Assembly (NCBI GenBank): GCA_043798445.1
Contig: JAZDOQ010000007.1
Coordinates: forward strand, 4,437-68,436
Source: Candidatus Gottesmanbacteria bacterium
Lineage (GTDB): Bacteria; Patescibacteriota; Microgenomatia; UBA10105; UBA927
Direction: 5' to 3'
DNA: 64,000 nt
Part shown: positions 5,850 to 52,641 of the stretch, in pieces
How the letters are laid out: every line of letters starts with the position of its first letter
Position numbering within the stretch: the stretch's first letter is position 1
The notes under the pieces: generated by a model
What the model was told of the DNA's origin: nothing
The model's input: the letters and a program-made list of their open reading frames with translations, nothing else
Databases searched by the model: none
Program-made: the position numbers and the translations under genes

Positions 5850-6887
5850 ATGCCAGTTGATGCAAAACTTCAAGCAGTCCGTCTTGCAATGGATCAGATT
5901 GAAAAACAATATGGGAAAGGTTCCATCATGCGGTTTGGAGAGAGGTCAACGGACAAATTAGCAATCGATGTTATTTCAACTGGTATTCTTCCGCTTGACT
6001 TGGCTCTTGGTGTTGGTGGACTCCCAAGAGGCAGGATTGTTGAGATATACGGTCCTGAAGCATCTGGAAAAACAACAGTCTGTTTGTCAGTTATTTCGGA
6101 AGCACAAAAATTAGGCGGAACGGCAGCATTTATCGACGCAGAACATGCACTTGATCCATTATGGGCGCAGACTTTGGGAGTAAAACTTGAGGATCTCCTT
6201 ATTTCTCAACCGGATTCAGGAGAACAGGCGCTTGAAATTGCTGAGACGCTAATTCGTAGCGGTGGTATCGATGTCATCGTTGTTGATTCTGTCGCAGCTC
6301 TTGTCCCGAGAGCTGAGCTCGAGGGAGATATCGGAGACAGCATGATCGGTGTACAAGCCCGGCTCATGTCGCAAGCACTCCGTAGGTTAACTTCGGTTAT
6401 CTCCAAGTCAAAAACGGTCGTGATGTTTACCAATCAACTCCGACAAAAAATTGGTGTCATGTTTGGAAATCCGGAAACAACACCTGGAGGACTGGCAATG
6501 AAATTCTATGCATCCGTCAGGCTTGATTCGAGGAAAATCGAATCCCTGAAAGATGGAGACAAAGTCATCGGAAGCCGTCACCGGATCCGTGTGGTGAAAA
6601 ACAAGGTGGCTCCACCGTTTAGGATTGCCGAATTTGATGTCATGCATGATGGTATTTCCAAAGAGGGAGCACTCATTGACGTGGGACTTGAATTTAACAT
6701 CCTTTCCAAGGCTGGAGCATTCATTAAGCATGGAGCTCAGATGTTAGGACAAGGTAAAGAAGCAACAAAAGCATTCTTTAGGGAAAATCCAAAAGTTTCC
6801 AAAGAAATCAGTGAAGCTATCTGGAAAATCGTTCGATCAGGATCTGTTCAAACAAAGGTCGTGGTCGGCGGTGAAGAAGCAGAATGA
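5850..6887 (+). CDS. recA: recombinase RecA
   Basis: ATG at 5850 follows an AAGGAG site. Contains the Walker A motif GPEASGKTT and [11 protein letters not shown]. Confidence 0.97.
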
Positions 6888-7387
6888 ACGAAGAGCTTCA
6901 AAAACTCATAGGCGCAGCTATTGCGTACATATCTATCCACCCACGAAGTGAGGCGGAGATTCGTATCTATCTTCATAAGCGCGTGGTAAAGCTCCACATG
7001 CCTGAAACAGCCATTCCAATGGCTCTAGAACGCCTTCAAGAGCTTCGCCTTGTTGATGATGCAGCATATGCGAGAATGTTTGTGGAGAGCCGTATGAGAA
7101 GCCGTCCCAAGGGGGAGCGACTGATTCGGTTAGAGTTGAAAACAAAAGGTGTTCAACCTGACGTCATCGAAGCTGTTTGTGGAAAGCTGTTTGAGAAAAA
7201 CAGTGAGGGGTCTACTGAACTTAATCTTGCCAGGCGGGCAGTTGAGAAGAAATGGCGATTGTGGCAAAAATTGTCCTTTATGGACAAGAAACAAAAGATT
7301 TATCGGTATTTGGCCGCACGAGGATTTTCGTCGTCTGTTATCTATAATCTCATTGACGAACTGGTTGGAAATCACTACAATACGTAA
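6884..7387 (+). CDS. recX: recombination regulator RecX
   Basis: Joined to recA by an ATGA overlap. The repeated three-helix pattern and its position after recA fit RecX. Confidence 0.8.
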
Positions 7388-7540
7388 CCATAAGAAACCA
7401 AACGTAGATATATATTGATTGTAGGATTATGACAACACCTTTAGTACTATTTTCTCCTACCAACCAATCCGTCTAATTAATCATTAAGGACGGTCTATCT
7501 GCGTGGGTTTTTAACAGTGTATTTTTCTGGAGGAAAAACT

Positions 7541-9073
7541 ATGTTTGACGTACTAAAAACCTTATCAAGTCTCGTTAAGTCACGACCGACCGTGACAATA
7601 TCCACTAAAGCAACAATAAAAAAGCAAAGTTTAGAACAGGTAAAAGCGCAACCAGCTCAAGTTGCACAGGTGCAACTTGGAAAGGCCCAGGCCCAGGCGC
7701 AGGCTCAAGTGCAAGCGCAACTTGCCATGGCGCAAGCCCAGGCGCGTGAACTTATTGTTGAAGCAAAAGATGAAGCATACCGCATAAAGCGGGAATCTGA
7801 AGAAGAAGTGCGAAAACGACTTGATGTTATTGGAAAACGGGAGGGAGCTGTTGAAGAGAGAGAAAAGCATGTACATGATGTTGAAATTACTACACAAAAA
7901 CGATTGTCTGATGCTGAGACAATAAAAGTCGAACTGACAAATAAATTGGAGAAAGCTGCTCGGATGACAAGTGAAGATGCGAGGAAATTTGTTCTTGAGG
8001 AAGCGCAGGAAAAAATGAAACCGCTCGTCGCAAAAGAAATTAAAGAAGCATATATCCGGGCAAAGGAAGAATCCGAAAGTAAAGCGAAGGAAATATTGGT
8101 TGATGCAATGCGCCATGGAGCAACAGAGTATGTTGCTGAATACACCGTGTCTGTCATTAAGATTCCAGATGAAGATGTAAAAGGAAGAATTATTGGAAAA
8201 GAAGGACGGAATATCCGTGCTTTTGAAACAGCAACTGGCGTTGATGTTGATTTGGATGAAGAAGGGGTCATACGGCTTTCCTGTTTTGATCCGGTACGTC
8301 GTGAGATAGCTCGCGTTGCTTTAGAGAGATTACTCAAAGATGGTCGTGTACAACCGGGACGGATTGAGGAAATTATCGAACAGGTAAAAAAAGAAATTGA
8401 ACGCATCATGTTTGAAGAAGGACAAAAATTATGTCACGCTGTTGGTGTATACAATTTGCCGTCACCAATAGTTGCGACACTCGGCCGGTTTAAATACAGA
8501 TTCTCGTATGGACAAAACATGATTGCACATACGCTTGAGGAAACAAAGATTGGTATTGCGCTTGCAAAAGAAGTTGGTGTTGACGCAAACATTGTGAGAC
8601 TTGGCTGTTTGCTTCATGACATTGGAAAAGTTATTAACGACAAAGAGGGAAGTCATATTGAACTTGGGGTTGAGCTGTTGAAAAAATATGGGTTGCCGAC
8701 AATGGTCATCGACTGTGTTGCACAACATCATGAAGATACACCATTTACGAGTGCTGAGTCTATGCTTACTTATATTGCTGATGCAATATCAGGAAGTCGA
8801 CCAGGAGCTAGGTATGAAAATTATGATGAATATATCAAGCGGCTCAAAGATCTTGAAGATATCGCAAAAGCACATGAGGGGGTGAAAGAAGTGTTTGCAT
8901 TCCAAGCGGGTCGGGAACTTAGAGTCGCGGTTGATCCAGGGATGGTTGATGATGCAACGGCAACGATCATTGCGCAAAAAATTAAAGAAGAAATTGAAGA
9001 AAAAATTACATTCCCGGGTCAAATAAAAGTGACTGTGGTTCGGGAACTTCGCGCAATAGAAGTTGCACACTAA
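7541..9073 (+). CDS. rny: ribonuclease Y (KH + HD domains), without an N-terminal TM helix
   Basis: Contains the KH motif GRIIGKEGRNIRAFE and the HD motif LLHDIGK...AQHHE. ATG at 7541 follows GGAGGA. Confidence 0.9.
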   Translation: MFDVLKTLSSLVKSRPTVTISTKATIKKQSLEQVKAQPAQVAQVQLGKAQAQAQAQVQAQLAMAQAQARELIVEAKDEAYRIKRESEEEVRKRLDVIGKREGAVEEREKHVHDVEITTQKRLSDAETIKVELTNKLEKAARMTSEDARKFVLEEAQEKMKPLVAKEIKEAYIRAKEESESKAKEILVDAMRHGATEYVAEYTVSVIKIPDEDVKGRIIGKEGRNIRAFETATGVDVDLDEEGVIRLSCFDPVRREIARVALERLLKDGRVQPGRIEEIIEQVKKEIERIMFEEGQKLCHAVGVYNLPSPIVATLGRFKYRFSYGQNMIAHTLEETKIGIALAKEVGVDANIVRLGCLLHDIGKVINDKEGSHIELGVELLKKYGLPTMVIDCVAQHHEDTPFTSAESMLTYIADAISGSRPGARYENYDEYIKRLKDLEDIAKAHEGVKEVFAFQAGRELRVAVDPGMVDDATATIIAQKIKEEIEEKITFPGQIKVTVVRELRAIEVAH

Positions 9074-46322: not shown

Positions 46323-47114
46323 CTATTTTAAAGAATTCTTCGTAAAATATTGGATCCACGTGGTAATGAATTGTATGACCATATCGGCGATCCGATACAA
46401 TATTCCATTCTCTTCCCTACTGGTTTTTATATTCTGTGCCGTAAATCCGTATATTTTTGTGTCGTCCTCCGGTACATAAGCGGTATTAAATGAATCATCT
46501 TTTTCTCTTTGTGTTGGTTTCGGGGCAGTGGAGATAATTGGTGTTGTTGTACTTTGAGGAGAGGGAGTGGATGTGTTTGTCGGTGTTCCGGAAAAGACAA
46601 TGGTTGTTCCGGTTTTTGTTCCAACTGCATTTGTGGTGAGTTCGATTACGGCAACAGCTGTGTCCGTCCGAAAAATGATGGAGGATATTTTTTTAGCTAT
46701 GGCTTTTATCGTTATGGTTGCGATGACACCGGAACCCCTTTTTGGCACATCTGGTGAAGCACCGACGATAAAGGCTATAACACCATTCGTTGCTGTGGCG
46801 GTTGACAATACTTCTGGAAGATATGGTCCGGGAACGATGTTGGTAATTGCAAGCGCTGTTTTATCATATATTAGGTACACTTCACTCGCACTAACTGTTT
46901 TACCATTGGTGTTCATGAGAATATTGAGCGTTGTTTCCTGATTAAGCACACCTGTTATTTGTGATGGACTTATGGATAAGGAAACAGCCGTATTAGTCGC
47001 ACGGCTTCGAACATCTTGCGTTATATTTATCGCAATAACACCAAGGACTAATCCACCAATGAGAAACAGTGTTGTAAGGAGAGAAGACATTCGAAAACGA
47101 GGTGTGTTTTGCAT
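46323..47114 (-). CDS. cohesin-like domain protein with N-terminal anchor or signal, S/T/P linker and conserved C-terminal tail
   Basis: A roughly 140-aa beta-rich module (VSLSISPSQITGVLNQETTLNILMNTNGK...GVIATITIKAIAKK) resembles cohesin. Its neighbour carries a dockerin. Confidence 0.5.
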   Translation of the reverse strand: MQNTPRFRMSSLLTTLFLIGGLVLGVIAINITQDVRSRATNTAVSLSISPSQITGVLNQETTLNILMNTNGKTVSASEVYLIYDKTALAITNIVPGPYLPEVLSTATATNGVIAFIVGASPDVPKRGSGVIATITIKAIAKKISSIIFRTDTAVAVIELTTNAVGTKTGTTIVFSGTPTNTSTPSPQSTTTPIISTAPKPTQREKDDSFNTAYVPEDDTKIYGFTAQNIKTSREENGILYRIADMVIQFITTWIQYFTKNSLK

Positions 47115-47118
47115 GCTG

Positions 47119-48534
47119 TTATTTATTAAAGTTTTTTACAATTACGTTGTAATCAAAAATATCCACCTTCCCGTTTTTATCAATATCGGAAGGAATAAAT
47201 CCCGGAATACCGGTTTTTTTGAAATTAGCCAGAAGTATGTTGTAATCGAGCATATTAACCTTTCCATCTCCATTTATATCTGCAGTTTTTTGGGTGGACG
47301 TTGGTGTTGCTGATATAAAGGGAGTGTTGACTGGTGTGTTCGTTGGCTTGAAGGTGGGGGTAGGTGTTTGAGTGGTGGTGGAGGGGATACCGACACACGG
47401 ACGGGTCGTATTTTCCCGAATCGCATCCATAACACCATAATAGGCTGGTTTACGTTGGTAGTTCTCATCAAACAGGAGGGGTTTGGCATCAGTGAGATTA
47501 GCATGATTTGGTAAACGAACCCAACTATATTTATCTGAGATGCCCCAGGTTCCTAGTGAAATACAGTTACTATGTGACAAACATTTTGCAGTGACTTTTT
47601 TATAGAGATTTGCAACATCTTCTTGGCTGTGTCCTGCTTGATATACATCCATTTCCGTAATGAGCACTTTCACATTGGCATCCTGCGCCTTTTGGAAATA
47701 ATAGTTCAAATCTTGAAGATATCCCGCGCTAAACTGTTCACCAGTTGTAGATATGAGATGGTTTTCTAACCCCACGGCATCGATCTGTATTCCTCTGGCC
47801 TTGGCGTTTTTGACATACTTGAAGAATGCATCTACCTCCACGATATGCATTCTATCCTTACCGACCGCATCATTGAGTACTAGAATAGCGTTTGGAGCTA
47901 TTTCATGGGCATATTCAAACGCTTTATCGATATAATCCAACCCGATGATGGATTTAAAACAATTAGTGCTCATTGCGCCGTTTTCCGAAAACGCTTCGTT
48001 GACAACGTTCCACACAGTAACAGTGTCGGCGCCATGTATCATGGTCGTTTGAATGTGGGTTTTCATTATTTCTAAAAGCTGTGATCTTGTCCATGTTCCA
48101 CAATTATTTTCGGTAAAAAGCCATGTCGGTGTATAAGAATTAGTCTTTCCATTGGTCCATATGAGATGGTAAAAATGTAGCTTCATGTTGTTGTTACGTG
48201 CAAACGTTATCACTTCATCAAAGCGGGTAAAGTCATTGAAACCCTGTGTTTTTTCTGTTTGACGCCATGTGTCCTGATATTGCATAAACATACTGGCGTA
48301 TTCTTGTGCTGCAATTTGTTTACACAAGGCAGCATTTGTCTGGTTTGATCTGAAACATTCGCCAATCAGCCCCGCAACGTTAAATTGGCGTTTTTTAGCG
48401 TATTGGCTTAATGTACTTTCTTCAGGTGGTGGAAGACCGCATTTGTTTGTAGTCGCATCACCAAGTACACTAGGAAAAAATGTAGAAAAAAGTATAGAGA
48501 TAGATGTAATAAGAGAAGTTATGAGGTTTGTCAT
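47119..48534 (-). CDS. glycoside hydrolase family 10 (endo-xylanase-like) with a C-terminal type-I dockerin
   Basis: GH10 motifs are WNVVNEAF (acid/base Glu) and VLITEMDV (nucleophile Glu). The dockerin is the duplicated Ca-loop DINGDGKVNMLDY...DIDKNGKVDIFDY. Confidence 0.85.
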   Translation of the reverse strand: MTNLITSLITSISILFSTFFPSVLGDATTNKCGLPPPEESTLSQYAKKRQFNVAGLIGECFRSNQTNAALCKQIAAQEYASMFMQYQDTWRQTEKTQGFNDFTRFDEVITFARNNNMKLHFYHLIWTNGKTNSYTPTWLFTENNCGTWTRSQLLEIMKTHIQTTMIHGADTVTVWNVVNEAFSENGAMSTNCFKSIIGLDYIDKAFEYAHEIAPNAILVLNDAVGKDRMHIVEVDAFFKYVKNAKARGIQIDAVGLENHLISTTGEQFSAGYLQDLNYYFQKAQDANVKVLITEMDVYQAGHSQEDVANLYKKVTAKCLSHSNCISLGTWGISDKYSWVRLPNHANLTDAKPLLFDENYQRKPAYYGVMDAIRENTTRPCVGIPSTTTQTPTPTFKPTNTPVNTPFISATPTSTQKTADINGDGKVNMLDYNILLANFKKTGIPGFIPSDIDKNGKVDIFDYNVIVKNFNK

Positions 48535-48589
48535 GCGATAAGTTCCCAAATCCTTAATAAGGATAGTATAACAAAAAGTAGTATATTTT

Positions 48590-50125
48590 TTATTTTAAAG
48601 AAGTCTTCGTAAAATATTGGATCCACGTGGTAATGAATTGTATTACCGCATCGGCGATTCGATACAGGATTCCATCCTCTTCCCTATTTGTTTTTATATT
48701 CTGTGCCGGAGATCCATTTATTGGTGTGTCATCATTTTGTATGTTTAGGTTAGTAGCAATGGTGGGAATGTTCGTTAGTGTTTGCGTGGGTTTGAGGACG
48801 GAGGTAGGAGTTCGAGTAGAAGTGTATGTTGGTATTTGTGTGGGTTTAAGAGTGGGCGTAGATATTTGAGTGGGAGTAATGGTTGGTTTGATAGTAGGAG
48901 TTCGGGTGGGAGTGCGCGTTGGTGTGTTCGTTGGTTTGAATGTGGGTGTAGGTGTTTGAGTAGGGGTAGGGAGGTTGCCGACACATGGACGGGTATTGTT
49001 TTCCCGAATCGCATCCATGACACCATAGTAGGCCAGTTTACGTTGGTAGGTCTCATCAAACAGAAGCGGTTTGGCATCAGGGAGATTAGCAAATTGAGGC
49101 AGACGTGCCCAACTGTCTTTATCTGATATTCCCCAGACTTCTAGCGAAATACAGTTACTGTACTTTAAGCACATTGCGGTAACCTTTTTGTACAGTTGAG
49201 CAACATCCTCTTGGCTGTGTCCTGCTTGATACACATCCATTTCCGTAATGAGTACTTTGACATTGGCATTTTGTGCCTTTTGAAAAAAATAGTTAAGATC
49301 GTCTAAATATCCGGAGCCAAATTGATCTCCGTTTTTTGATAGAAGGTGATTTTGTAATCCTACCGCGTCAATGGGTACACCGCGATTTTTAGCACTTTTG
49401 ACATAGGTAAAAAACCCATCCACTTTCGATCGGAGCATCCGATCTCTGCCAAAAAATTCATTGAGAACCAAAAGAGCATGTGGTGTTGCTTGCCGTGCAT
49501 ACCGAAACGCTTTATCAATGTAATCCAATCCTATAATCTTATAGAAACAGTCCTGAACCATCGATCCATTCTCCTCAAACGCCTCATTCACCACGTTCCA
49601 GACAGTGACCATATCACCTGCATGGCTTATCATTGCCTGTATATGAGTCTTCATGATTTGATCGAGCTCCTGTTTACTCCAGTTGCCGCATTGACCCGGT
49701 TCAGGAAACAACCATTTGGGAGGATATGTGTTCTTGTTATGGTTTGTCCAAACAAGATGATAAAAATGCAGTTTGGAATTGTTGTTTCTGGAAAATGTTA
49801 TCACCTCGTCAAATTTGGTGAAATTGTACGATCCTCGGGTTTTTTCTGTGGTTGCCCAATGGTCTTGATACGGGACAAACATTCCAGGGAATTCATTGAT
49901 TGCGGTTTGTTGGCATGTTGTCCGAAGAGGATTATCAGTTTTGAAACATTGATTAATTTGTCCGCTGACATTAAAGTTTCGTTTTTGCGCATATTGACTG
50001 AGAGTGCTTTGTTCAGCCGGTGGGAGCTGGCATTTGTTGGTTGTTTGGTCACCGAGTACAGTAGGAAAAAATGTGGAAAAAAGTATAGAGATAGATGTAA
50101 TAAGAGAAGTGATGGAGTTTGTCAT
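48590..50125 (-). CDS. glycoside hydrolase family 10 paralog with a long Pro/Thr linker and the same C-terminal tail as the cohesin protein
   Basis: Contains WNVVNEAF and VLITEMDV, a roughly 70-aa (TPT/KPT)n linker, and the tail REEDGILYRIADAVIQFITTWIQYFTKTSLK. Confidence 0.85.
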   Translation of the reverse strand: MTNSITSLITSISILFSTFFPTVLGDQTTNKCQLPPAEQSTLSQYAQKRNFNVSGQINQCFKTDNPLRTTCQQTAINEFPGMFVPYQDHWATTEKTRGSYNFTKFDEVITFSRNNNSKLHFYHLVWTNHNKNTYPPKWLFPEPGQCGNWSKQELDQIMKTHIQAMISHAGDMVTVWNVVNEAFEENGSMVQDCFYKIIGLDYIDKAFRYARQATPHALLVLNEFFGRDRMLRSKVDGFFTYVKSAKNRGVPIDAVGLQNHLLSKNGDQFGSGYLDDLNYFFQKAQNANVKVLITEMDVYQAGHSQEDVAQLYKKVTAMCLKYSNCISLEVWGISDKDSWARLPQFANLPDAKPLLFDETYQRKLAYYGVMDAIRENNTRPCVGNLPTPTQTPTPTFKPTNTPTRTPTRTPTIKPTITPTQISTPTLKPTQIPTYTSTRTPTSVLKPTQTLTNIPTIATNLNIQNDDTPINGSPAQNIKTNREEDGILYRIADAVIQFITTWIQYFTKTSLK

Positions 50126-50224
50126 ACTATGAGTTACCGAGCTATCAATAAGTATAGTATACCAAAATAAAACGATTATTGTGGCTACGGTAAATACTGA
50201 TTATAAATCTGATATACTGGGAAA

Positions 50225-51996: not shown

Positions 51997-52641
51997 TTAG
52001 TTATTAAGAAAGGCTATGAGCCATCCAAACATGCTAAAACCTTTGCGTTCTGCTAAAACCCTTTCTTCAAGTGCTGTATTTTCCTGAATCAGAGCATCGA
52101 CTGCTTCCTGGATTTTTGTTTGATCACTGGTGTTAAATACTTGAATTTTAAGTTGCATCAGCTGCTCTATCCGTAACCGATTTTGTTCAACTTGACTGCT
52201 TAATGCTTTGACTGATCGGTGATCAGTGCCGGTAAGAAATCTTGAAAATCCGGATTTTGCGTCAATTTTTTGAATATTTTGGGTAATGACGTCATGAGCC
52301 AGCATTTGTCCTTTGACGACATCTTCTACCTGTTTTTTTACAATACTTCCCATGGAATAGGAAGATGAAAGCGCTTTCAGTGTCTCTGCAGCAACTCCTA
52401 CGGAATTGAGGGTTTGTGCTTGTTTTTCCTGTTCACTTGTTTGAACCATGAGGTTGCTTGCGCTTCCCTGATTTTGCGTTTGTACTTGATTTTTGTTTTG
52501 TACTTGAACTCCACTTGGCGTGACTGTTTTACTTATTTGTACCTGCGTTTGTTGCTGAGTCGCTTGAGCACCGCCTGAATTCGCTGCGTATATAGGCATT
52601 GCGATAATACCAGCAATAATAAGGCTAATGATATGTTTCAT
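51997..52641 (-). CDS. secreted Gln-rich coiled-coil protein with a hydrophobic C-terminus
   Basis: Signal peptide and a low-complexity Q/V/T region. No family recognised. Confidence 0.45.
   Translation of the reverse strand: MKHIISLIIAGIIAMPIYAANSGGAQATQQQTQVQISKTVTPSGVQVQNKNQVQTQNQGSASNLMVQTSEQEKQAQTLNSVGVAAETLKALSSSYSMGSIVKKQVEDVVKGQMLAHDVITQNIQKIDAKSGFSRFLTGTDHRSVKALSSQVEQNRLRIEQLMQLKIQVFNTSDQTKIQEAVDALIQENTALEERVLAERKGFSMFGWLIAFLNN

Follow-up and report, generated by a model that had tools for sequence, protein, structure and literature searches.

The 64-kb window analysed here, i.e., the whole stretch of DNA under study, belongs to a contig of a metagenome-assembled genome of Candidatus Gottesmanbacteria (Microgenomates, Patescibacteria/Candidate Phyla Radiation, CPR), and all positions without a locus name refer to it. 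Three co-oriented open reading frames (ORFs) lie on its minus strand, flanked by plus-strand housekeeping genes, and all three were found where a first-pass annotation of the sequence had placed them. In the order of transcription, they are a glycoside hydrolase family 10 (GH10) gene, here called paralogue 2 (48590-50125; 511 aa; named endo-1,4-beta-xylanase at NCBI), a second GH10 gene that ends in a dockerin (47119-48534; 471 aa counted from the ATG at 48534, with an in-frame TTG at 48549 as a possible alternative start), and a gene for a 263-aa protein with a single cohesin domain (46323-47114). The cohesin gene starts 4 nt past the stop codon of the GH10-dockerin gene. NCBI names are already correct for all three proteins; what the three genes may do together, as a device for tethering a xylanase to the cell surface, is the subject of this analysis.

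Domains of the three proteins

The assignment of both enzymes to GH10 was upheld. Pfam Glyco_hydro_10 was matched by the GH10-dockerin protein (E = 1e-61, profile positions 8-311 of 311) and by paralogue 2 (E = 2.4e-67, profile positions 33-311 of 311), and the motifs WNVVNE and ITEMD, by which the first-pass annotation had recognised the family, are present in both genes. The Glu of WNVVNE, the acid/base of the family, and the Glu of ITEMD, its nucleophile, were invariant in one GH10 alignment (E180 and E294) as well as in another of 37 sequences (E181 and E295). Sequence matches of the GH10-dockerin protein in the PDB were GH10 xylanases, led by 1xyz (E = 1e-44; annotated as 1,4-beta-D-xylan-xylanohydrolase), the catalytic domain of XynZ from Clostridium thermocellum. 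Both predicted enzymes would be expected to act on xylan. In the GH10-dockerin protein, a signal peptide is followed by the GH10 domain, a Pro/Thr-rich (PT) linker of ~37 aa, and the dockerin. Paralogue 2 consists of a signal peptide (aa 1-25), a GH10 barrel (~aa 31-385), a PT linker (~aa 386-483) that had been correctly noted from the sequence, and a C-terminal helix (aa 484-510). In the AlphaFold2 (AF2) model of paralogue 2, strands and helices alternate over aa 31-385 to form a (beta/alpha)8 barrel, with predicted local distance difference test (pLDDT) scores of 93-99.

A profile scan of genome contigs with the GH10 alignment returned two close loci only, one of them already known and the other ending before the dockerin. 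Other relatives differ in what follows or precedes the catalytic domain. The CPR-type proteins P0157, P0158, P0160, and P0162 have one or two copies of a ~40-aa Cys-rich module (C.x.KDK..CE..CG...KC.W....C) in the place of a dockerin or tail, with no recorded Pfam family besides GH10, plus PF02449 on P0162. Beta-sandwich repeats occur in P0154 and P0163, and N-terminal dockerins in P0166 and P0169.

The dockerin module (47122-47280, minus strand; 53 aa, DINGDGKVNMLDYNILLANFKK-TGIPGFIPS-DIDKNGKVDIFDYNVIVKNFNK) comprises two Ca-loop/helix repeats and scored 32.8 bits against Pfam Dockerin_1 (PF00404; E = 7.9e-08), for which the cut-off is 22.9. When a regular expression for the 12-residue Ca loop was run over the six-frame translation of the 64 kb, it matched only at 47245-47280 and 47152-47187, both within the GH10-dockerin ORF. 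The two loops, DINGDGKVNMLD and DIDKNGKVDIFD, are C-terminal and 31 residues apart from start to start; each is EF-hand-like (D-x-[ND]-x-[DN]-G-...-D) and followed by a helix, which is the build of a two-repeat type I dockerin and agrees with the duplicated C-terminal dockerin claimed earlier. Loop positions 10-11, a recognition site that is hydrophobic in mesophilic clostridia as well, are hydrophobic here (ML and IF). Since the repeats are near-symmetric, a dual binding mode would be plausible. In alignment, the dockerin of the orthologue at locus L001 (see below) is nearly the same as that of the window, and the inter-repeat linker TG(I/V)PGF.P is kept among CPR dockerins. At three other loci (L012, 4334-5539; L016, 1363-2643; L017, 6001-7281), the dockerin has a single complete Ca loop followed by YTI(F/Y)DYNNLV, and these one-loop forms look like natural truncations.

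The 263-aa protein was the harder case. Its layout is an N-terminal hydrophobic helix with a QDVRSRA motif, a cohesin domain (46590-46994, minus strand; aa 41-175), a PT linker, and a C-terminal amphipathic helix, and an identical entry at NCBI is named "cohesin domain-containing protein" of Ca. Gottesmanbacteria. Searched alone against Pfam, the protein matched no family at E<=1, Cohesin included, and this must be counted against its being a cohesin. It likewise had no meaningful match in NCBIfam, none in the PDB by phmmer, and only itself in a word-indexed homologue search. When 1.84 billion representatives were searched exhaustively with HMMER, 891 homologues were returned. PF00963 was matched by 98 of the 109 homologues that were aligned (best E = 8.8e-18), and 14 of these 109 carry a cohesin together with a dockerin. 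The family profile built from this alignment matched cohesin chains only in the PDB, the best being 3l8q (E = 3e-07). An AF2 model built with the family alignment showed a beta-sandwich of 12 strand segments over aa 44-174 (pLDDT 93-98), for which cohesins or cohesin-like proteins made up 49 of the top 50 Foldseek matches in the PDB. The top structural matches were type I cohesins of C. cellulolyticum (1g1k; E = 1.6e-10, template modelling score 0.73), C. acetobutylicum (6kgf; 0.78), and C. thermocellum. Considering the PF00963 matches of its homologues, the matches of the family profile in the PDB, and the fold, the protein is a divergent, type-I-like cohesin whose own sequence lies below Pfam detection. 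Thus, the cohesin-like module of the first-pass annotation stands by family profile and fold, whereas the Pfam search proposed there for confirming it failed.

One relative of this protein, with 35% identity, is a JGI metagenome protein of 2276 aa (P0002) in which nine Pfam cohesins are combined with Big_7 and fn3 domains and with a dockerin at the C-terminus. Given this nine-cohesin architecture, the family includes true scaffoldins.

A two-gene cassette in other lineages

In four other lineages, an enzyme-dockerin gene lies directly upstream of a cohesin-family gene. At L001, which encodes the closest relative of the cohesin protein (P0003, 49% identity), a GH10-dockerin gene (6512-7996) and the cohesin gene (8001-8786) are separated by 4 nt. 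At L016 and L017, GH10-dockerin genes (P0165 and P0195, respectively) whose products are ~50% identical to the GH10 of the window are followed after 2 nt by a Pfam-positive cohesin gene. A different enzyme, with Pfam Dockerin_1 at its C-terminus, stands 17 nt before the cohesin gene at L011, and at L012 the gene for a 401-aa protein of no assigned family, ending in a dockerin, overlaps the cohesin gene. Across five loci, the two genes overlap or are separated by spacers of <=17 nt, and the catalytic partners are of at least three kinds. The 64 kb of the window hold one cohesin and one dockerin.

Because the arrangement recurs in four other lineages, it supports the view that the adjacent dockerin and cohesin are a cognate pair, for which the recurring adjacency is good contextual evidence. 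It is also good, though indirect, evidence for a general cassette of two genes, "X-dockerin + single cohesin", in the Microgenomates-like group. The one-enzyme scaffold that had been suggested from the neighbouring cohesin and dockerin thus builds on an adjacency that is real and conserved in other Microgenomates-like contigs, with binding between the two predicted from this gene order. The locus is not a cellulosome in the strict sense, having a single cohesin, no carbohydrate-binding module, and no multi-cohesin scaffoldin within the 64-kb window.

The closest orthologues of the GH10-dockerin and cohesin genes were found on contig CAYUUX010000015.1 (L002), which is labelled as an uncultured Gammaproteobacteria bacterium. 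To judge from the genes it carries and from its likeness to the Gottesmanbacteria locus, the bin has probably been assigned to the wrong taxon.

The shared C-terminal tail and the mode of attachment

According to the first-pass annotation, the dockerin is replaced in paralogue 2 by a PT linker and a different tail. That tail proved to be the cohesin protein's own C-terminus. The last 47 aa of paralogue 2 (48593-48733, minus strand; aa 465-511, DDTPINGSPAQNIKTNREEDGILYRIADAVIQFITTWIQYFTKTSLK) match the last 47 aa of the cohesin protein (46326-46466, minus strand; aa 217-263) with the common pattern AQNIKTxREExGILYRIADxVIQFITTWIQYFTKxSLK (BLASTP, 82 bits, E = 4e-22). Over the last 43 codons, identity is 84% in amino acids and 89% in nucleotides, and about 85-86% of synonymous codons are identical. 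AF2 models end in a helix in both cases: aa 237-261 of the cohesin protein (nt 46332-46406; pLDDT 82-87), and aa 484-510 of paralogue 2, where it follows a disordered PT linker (aa 389-482, pLDDT <50). On the Eisenberg scale, the tail helix has a hydrophobic moment of 0.60 and a mean hydrophobicity of 0.34. A transmembrane segment was ruled out, the best 19-residue Kyte-Doolittle window being too low at 0.95. The helix is therefore terminal, high in moment, too polar to span a membrane, and carried by exported proteins, which are the physical properties of the amphipathic-anchor class. No S-layer homology (SLH) repeats or sortase signal were found in these proteins by Pfam or NCBIfam, and the C-terminus reads ...WIQYFTKNSLK. 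We infer that the tail serves as the surface anchor of both the cohesin protein and paralogue 2.

The C-termini of the 150 top-scoring cohesin relatives, sorted with a rough classifier, are in keeping with this view. At least 28 have a PT linker and an amphipathic helix, with basic residues after the pattern F..I(I/L)..(I/L)..FF..LF; a dockerin stands at the end of ~36 and a transmembrane segment at the end of ~14, in one of which (P0024) it is preceded by an LPXTG-like motif, LPTTG. Since dockerins, transmembrane segments, and amphipathic helices alternate there, the C-terminal position appears to hold attachment devices. A distant GH10 enzyme, P0171, has a PT linker and an amphipathic C-terminal helix too. 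A homologue search with the tail alone yielded no candidates and also missed its own protein, hence that search was uninformative; JGI metagenome contigs scanned with the tail peptides WIQYFTK and AQNIKT[SN]R gave no relative.

The first-pass annotation had placed the anchor of the cohesin protein at its N-terminus. This segment (46998-47114, minus strand; aa 1-39) contains a helix (aa 9-29), which AF2 models confidently as 21 hydrophobic residues, followed by TQDVRSRA. Of the 60 top family members, 33 matched a strict regular expression, i.e., a hydrophobic run followed by [RKQT][ST]x[AS], the usual form being RS(R/K)A, and several more have less exact variants; in the related GH10 proteins P0162, P0158, P0154, and P0166, too, the N-terminal helix is followed by a similar motif. 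Signal peptidase I cleaves by a small-x-small rule. Since RS(R/K)A fits this rule and the motif also occurs on soluble-type enzymes, the helix is probably a cleavable signal peptide, with TQDVRSRA as the predicted cleavage site, and not the anchor that it had been taken for. Were it cleaved, the tail would be the only candidate anchor.

It could be argued instead that the helix stays in place as a signal anchor, i.e., that the cohesin protein is held by an uncleaved N-terminal transmembrane helix while its C-terminal helix contacts a host-cell membrane, the substrate, or an S-layer. The confidence and length of the modelled helix would suit such a role, as would the long charged N-terminal extensions that precede it in many family members and are more typical of signal anchors. 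Furthermore, the cohesin partner of P0195 at L017 has no tail and is presumably still functional. However, besides the fit of RS(R/K)A to the small-x-small rule and its presence behind the helix of related GH10 enzymes, paralogue 2, whose signal peptide is short and ordinary (VLG|D), would be left with no anchor if the tail were not one, and relatives with C-terminal transmembrane or LPXTG-like ends would be anchored twice. We therefore consider a signal anchor unlikely. The fuller motif (T/K)xQ(D/E)xRS(R/K)A after the N-terminal helix (46998-47024; aa 31-39 in the window protein) is shared by most cohesin-family members P0003-P0060 and by several CPR GH10 proteins. Its conservation exceeds that of a typical signal-peptidase site, so a role as a signal for export or processing that is specific to the lineage is possible.

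Another use of the tail would be oligomerisation or docking, in which the two tails pair or bind a third protein and so bring two xylanases into one complex without a multi-cohesin scaffoldin. The tails have been kept ~90% identical in DNA while the rest diverged, as if both fitted one partner, and polar residues recur at each third or fourth position (R, D, Q, TT, Q, TK) in a narrow polar stripe. Nevertheless, hydrophobic residues occupy about two thirds of the helix, as they rarely do in a soluble coiled coil, and at the equivalent position relatives hold transmembrane or LPXTG-like anchors. The tails also vary greatly between genomes, with only the amphipathic character kept, as is typical of lipid-binding helices, and at the other cassette loci the local cohesin tail was found on no second protein, so that this genome is so far the only one in which two proteins share a tail. 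Taken together, these observations make a docking helix decidedly improbable.

We thus prefer to read the locus as a monovalent cohesin-dockerin enzyme tether in which the tail is the anchor and paralogue 2 is a covalent bypass, and we put the probability of this joint claim at roughly 0.6. The GH10-dockerin and single-cohesin proteins would be co-transcribed across the 4-nt gap and then exported, and the dockerin would bind the neighbouring type-I-like cohesin. The cohesin would sit on a Pro/Thr stalk of ~60 aa ending in the amphipathic helix of ~25 aa, and the complex would be held at the cell surface by this helix rather than by the N-terminal one. Paralogue 2, its dockerin lost, would attach directly through the same tail on a longer PT stalk (~98 aa, partly the result of an internal 30-aa duplication), thereby bypassing the cohesin-dockerin bridge. 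The most likely site of the tail would be the outer leaflet of the cytoplasmic membrane, as in Escherichia coli PBP5, an exported enzyme that an amphipathic C-terminal helix of 18 aa holds at the outer face of the inner membrane (PMC2909392). By analogy, the tail resembles those of PBP5 and PBP6 (DacA and DacC) in position, physicochemical class, and, approximately, length. It differs from them in having no sequence homology, in following a long disordered PT linker, and in being attached to cohesin and GH10 modules.

Several points, in addition to the failed Pfam match of the cohesin, weigh against this reading. The exact tail sequence turned up nowhere else in these scans. The tail is not obligatory for the cassette, since the L017 cohesin (7284-8114) has a PT linker, lacks an amphipathic helix, and ends in ...GGKSNYIQRCTGANAGKCN. 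An amphipathic helix at a C-terminus might equally serve protein-protein contacts, and the cleavage of the N-terminal helix is a prediction from its motif. Finally, the analysis covered 64 kb, and cohesins encoded elsewhere in the genome could be the true partners of the dockerin. That the pair is not cognate at all, the dockerin binding, e.g., a P0002-like scaffoldin encoded elsewhere and the neighbouring cohesin binding other dockerins, would fit the 64-kb coverage, the nine-cohesin relative, and the multi-level assemblies evident from the 14 of 109 relatives with both domains, but it is very improbable, since dockerin-cohesin adjacency in five loci with at least three catalytic partners is hard to explain without a functional link.

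Paralogue history, related systems, and the surrounding genes

Amino acid identity between the two GH10 proteins is 63%, and the similarity is unevenly distributed. Over the first 35 codons, identity reaches 89% for amino acids, 85% for nucleotides, and 77% for synonymous codons, so the near-identical 5' ends reported earlier are real. In the GH10 core, synonymous-codon identity is 34-52%, and over the last third of the barrel and the linker start it is 62-82%. A recent duplication of the whole gene was rejected on the core values, and the "recent tandem duplication" of the first-pass annotation is therefore wrong for the gene as a whole: only its ends (62-82%) and the tail (85%) look recent. 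From this mosaic in the DNA, we read the duplication as old, with ends that were homogenised by gene conversion or recently exchanged. A parsimonious route would be duplication of a [GH10-Doc][Coh-tail] unit, recombination between the PT-linker regions, and deletion of the dockerin and the cohesin. The homology boundaries fit this route, and paralogue 2 probably arose by such a PT-linker recombination within a duplicated GH10-dockerin/cohesin unit, its ends being kept alike by gene conversion.

Within the region that encodes the PT linker of paralogue 2, a 90-nt (30-aa) unit is duplicated in tandem (48804-48968, minus strand; Tandem Repeats Finder score 197, 1.8 copies, 74% matches), and this has lengthened the linker internally. 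Its 98 aa are also about the sum of the two linkers of the bridged pair (~37 + 61 aa).

The upstream motif ATAAG(G/T)ATAGTATA, or TATACTAT(A/C)CTTAT in its coding-strand form, occurs exactly twice in the window: as TATACTATACTTAT before paralogue 2 (50148-50161, minus strand) and as TATACTATCCTTAT before the GH10-dockerin gene (48557-48570, minus strand). In both cases, the motif starts at a distance of 23 nt from the first base of the ATG, in agreement with the earlier claim that the motif is common to the two GH10 genes. With two mismatches allowed, its count is not significant (22 of 100 shuffles reach 2), and its meaning lies in the identical position before both paralogues, not in its number. 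The motif is probably a -10-like promoter element. A sigma-70 scan of the locus gave 11 promoter-like sites against 12.6 +/- 3.8 expected and did not single out the shared motif; terminator-like sites numbered 7 against 3.5 +/- 1.8 expected, both counts being at or near background.

Surface anchoring by a cohesin protein is familiar from OlpA and OlpC of C. thermocellum, which combine a type I cohesin with SLH repeats, and from ScaE of Ruminococcus flavefaciens, which combines a cohesin with LPXTG. The likeness to the window protein lies in one cohesin per protein, a surface location (predicted here), and the binding of an individual dockerin enzyme or scaffoldin; among the Foldseek matches, the complex of the OlpC cohesin (4dh2) was ranked 11 and the cohesin of ScaE (2zf9) was ranked 24. 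In contrast to these proteins, the Gottesmanbacteria cohesin has neither SLH nor LPXTG and instead a PT stalk with a C-terminal amphipathic helix, the gene of its partner enzyme adjoins its own and is probably co-transcribed with it, and the host is a CPR bacterium with a reduced genome rather than a cellulolytic organism of the Clostridium type. The best structural matches came from the clostridial type I pairs, i.e., C. cellulolyticum 1g1k/2vn5 and C. acetobutylicum CaCohA2-CaDoc0917 (6kgc-6kgf), with template modelling scores of 0.73-0.78, whereas cohesin sequence identity to them is 14-20%, the query lying below Pfam detection. Cohesin-dockerin pairing outside a multi-enzyme cellulosome is likewise found with the GH84C and GH33 cohesins of C. 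perfringens and with 2xdh of Archaeoglobus fulgidus, and the non-cellulosomal structures 2jh2, 2w1n, 2vo8, and 2xdh were among the Foldseek matches. Those systems link toxins or glycosidases, or their partners are unknown, whereas here the enzyme and its tether form an operon-like cassette. The locus is accordingly a stripped-down variant of a known enzyme-tethering system and not a new type of machine.

Cohesin and dockerin genes of Microgenomates (Ca. Shapirobacterales) were expressed in groundwater and read as signs of carbohydrate degradation, and such genes are also cited for Ca. Roizmanbacterium (PMC9123182). As far as considered here, those reports are at the level of annotation, whereas the present locus adds a cassette, an amphipathic tail, and a paralogue with a grafted tail. 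Finding cohesin and dockerin genes beside a xylanase in Microgenomates thus extends the published reports without introducing a new principle. In the text returned by keyword searches of the literature, there was no account of an enzyme-dockerin/cohesin cassette, of the amphipathic-tail class, or of a grafted-tail paralogue, and searches on amphipathic tails in CPR bacteria gave nothing relevant.

A broader idea is that a PT linker with an amphipathic C-terminal helix constitutes a widespread, undescribed surface-attachment module of Microgenomates/CPR, one that replaces SLH and sortase anchors and can be moved between tethers and enzymes. We offer this tentatively, as something rather short of probable; such a module may work together with the N-terminal ...QDxRSRA export motif. 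If it were true, paralogue 2 would be a natural experiment in which the cohesin-dockerin bridge has been replaced by the grafted anchor of the tether, and the covalent and cohesin-dockerin routes of attachment would be functionally interchangeable. Little is known about how CPR bacteria, with their tiny genomes and unusual envelopes, present enzymes at the cell surface; the shared amphipathic tail is a candidate for such an anchoring device. An enzyme-dockerin with a single cohesin is about the simplest cohesin-dockerin system imaginable, and a compact, divergent pair of this kind may suit designer assemblies as an orthogonal pair. With the grafted-tail paralogue as an internal control, in turn, the contribution of the bridge beyond direct anchoring could be gauged.

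Of the genes around the locus, those on one flank encode a DEAD-box helicase-like ORF (so labelled from its sequence motifs alone), a GT4 glycosyltransferase, a ZIP transporter, and a small GTPase, and those on the other a cyclophilin and a rubrerythrin. An Rfam scan of the window matched no RNA family. Between 38001 and 42000, GC content is 0.35 as compared with ~0.40 and GC skew is negative; the minus-strand genes there encode a protein with a weak HhH-GPD match, a 327-aa ORF of no assigned family, and an SDR protein, and the segment may have been inserted or inverted. At 51997-52641, the minus strand encodes a Gln-rich protein of 214 aa that has a signal peptide and matches no Pfam family, and its C-terminus has a short hydrophobic stretch (GFSMFGWLIAFLNN) reminiscent of the shorter tails of the cohesin family.

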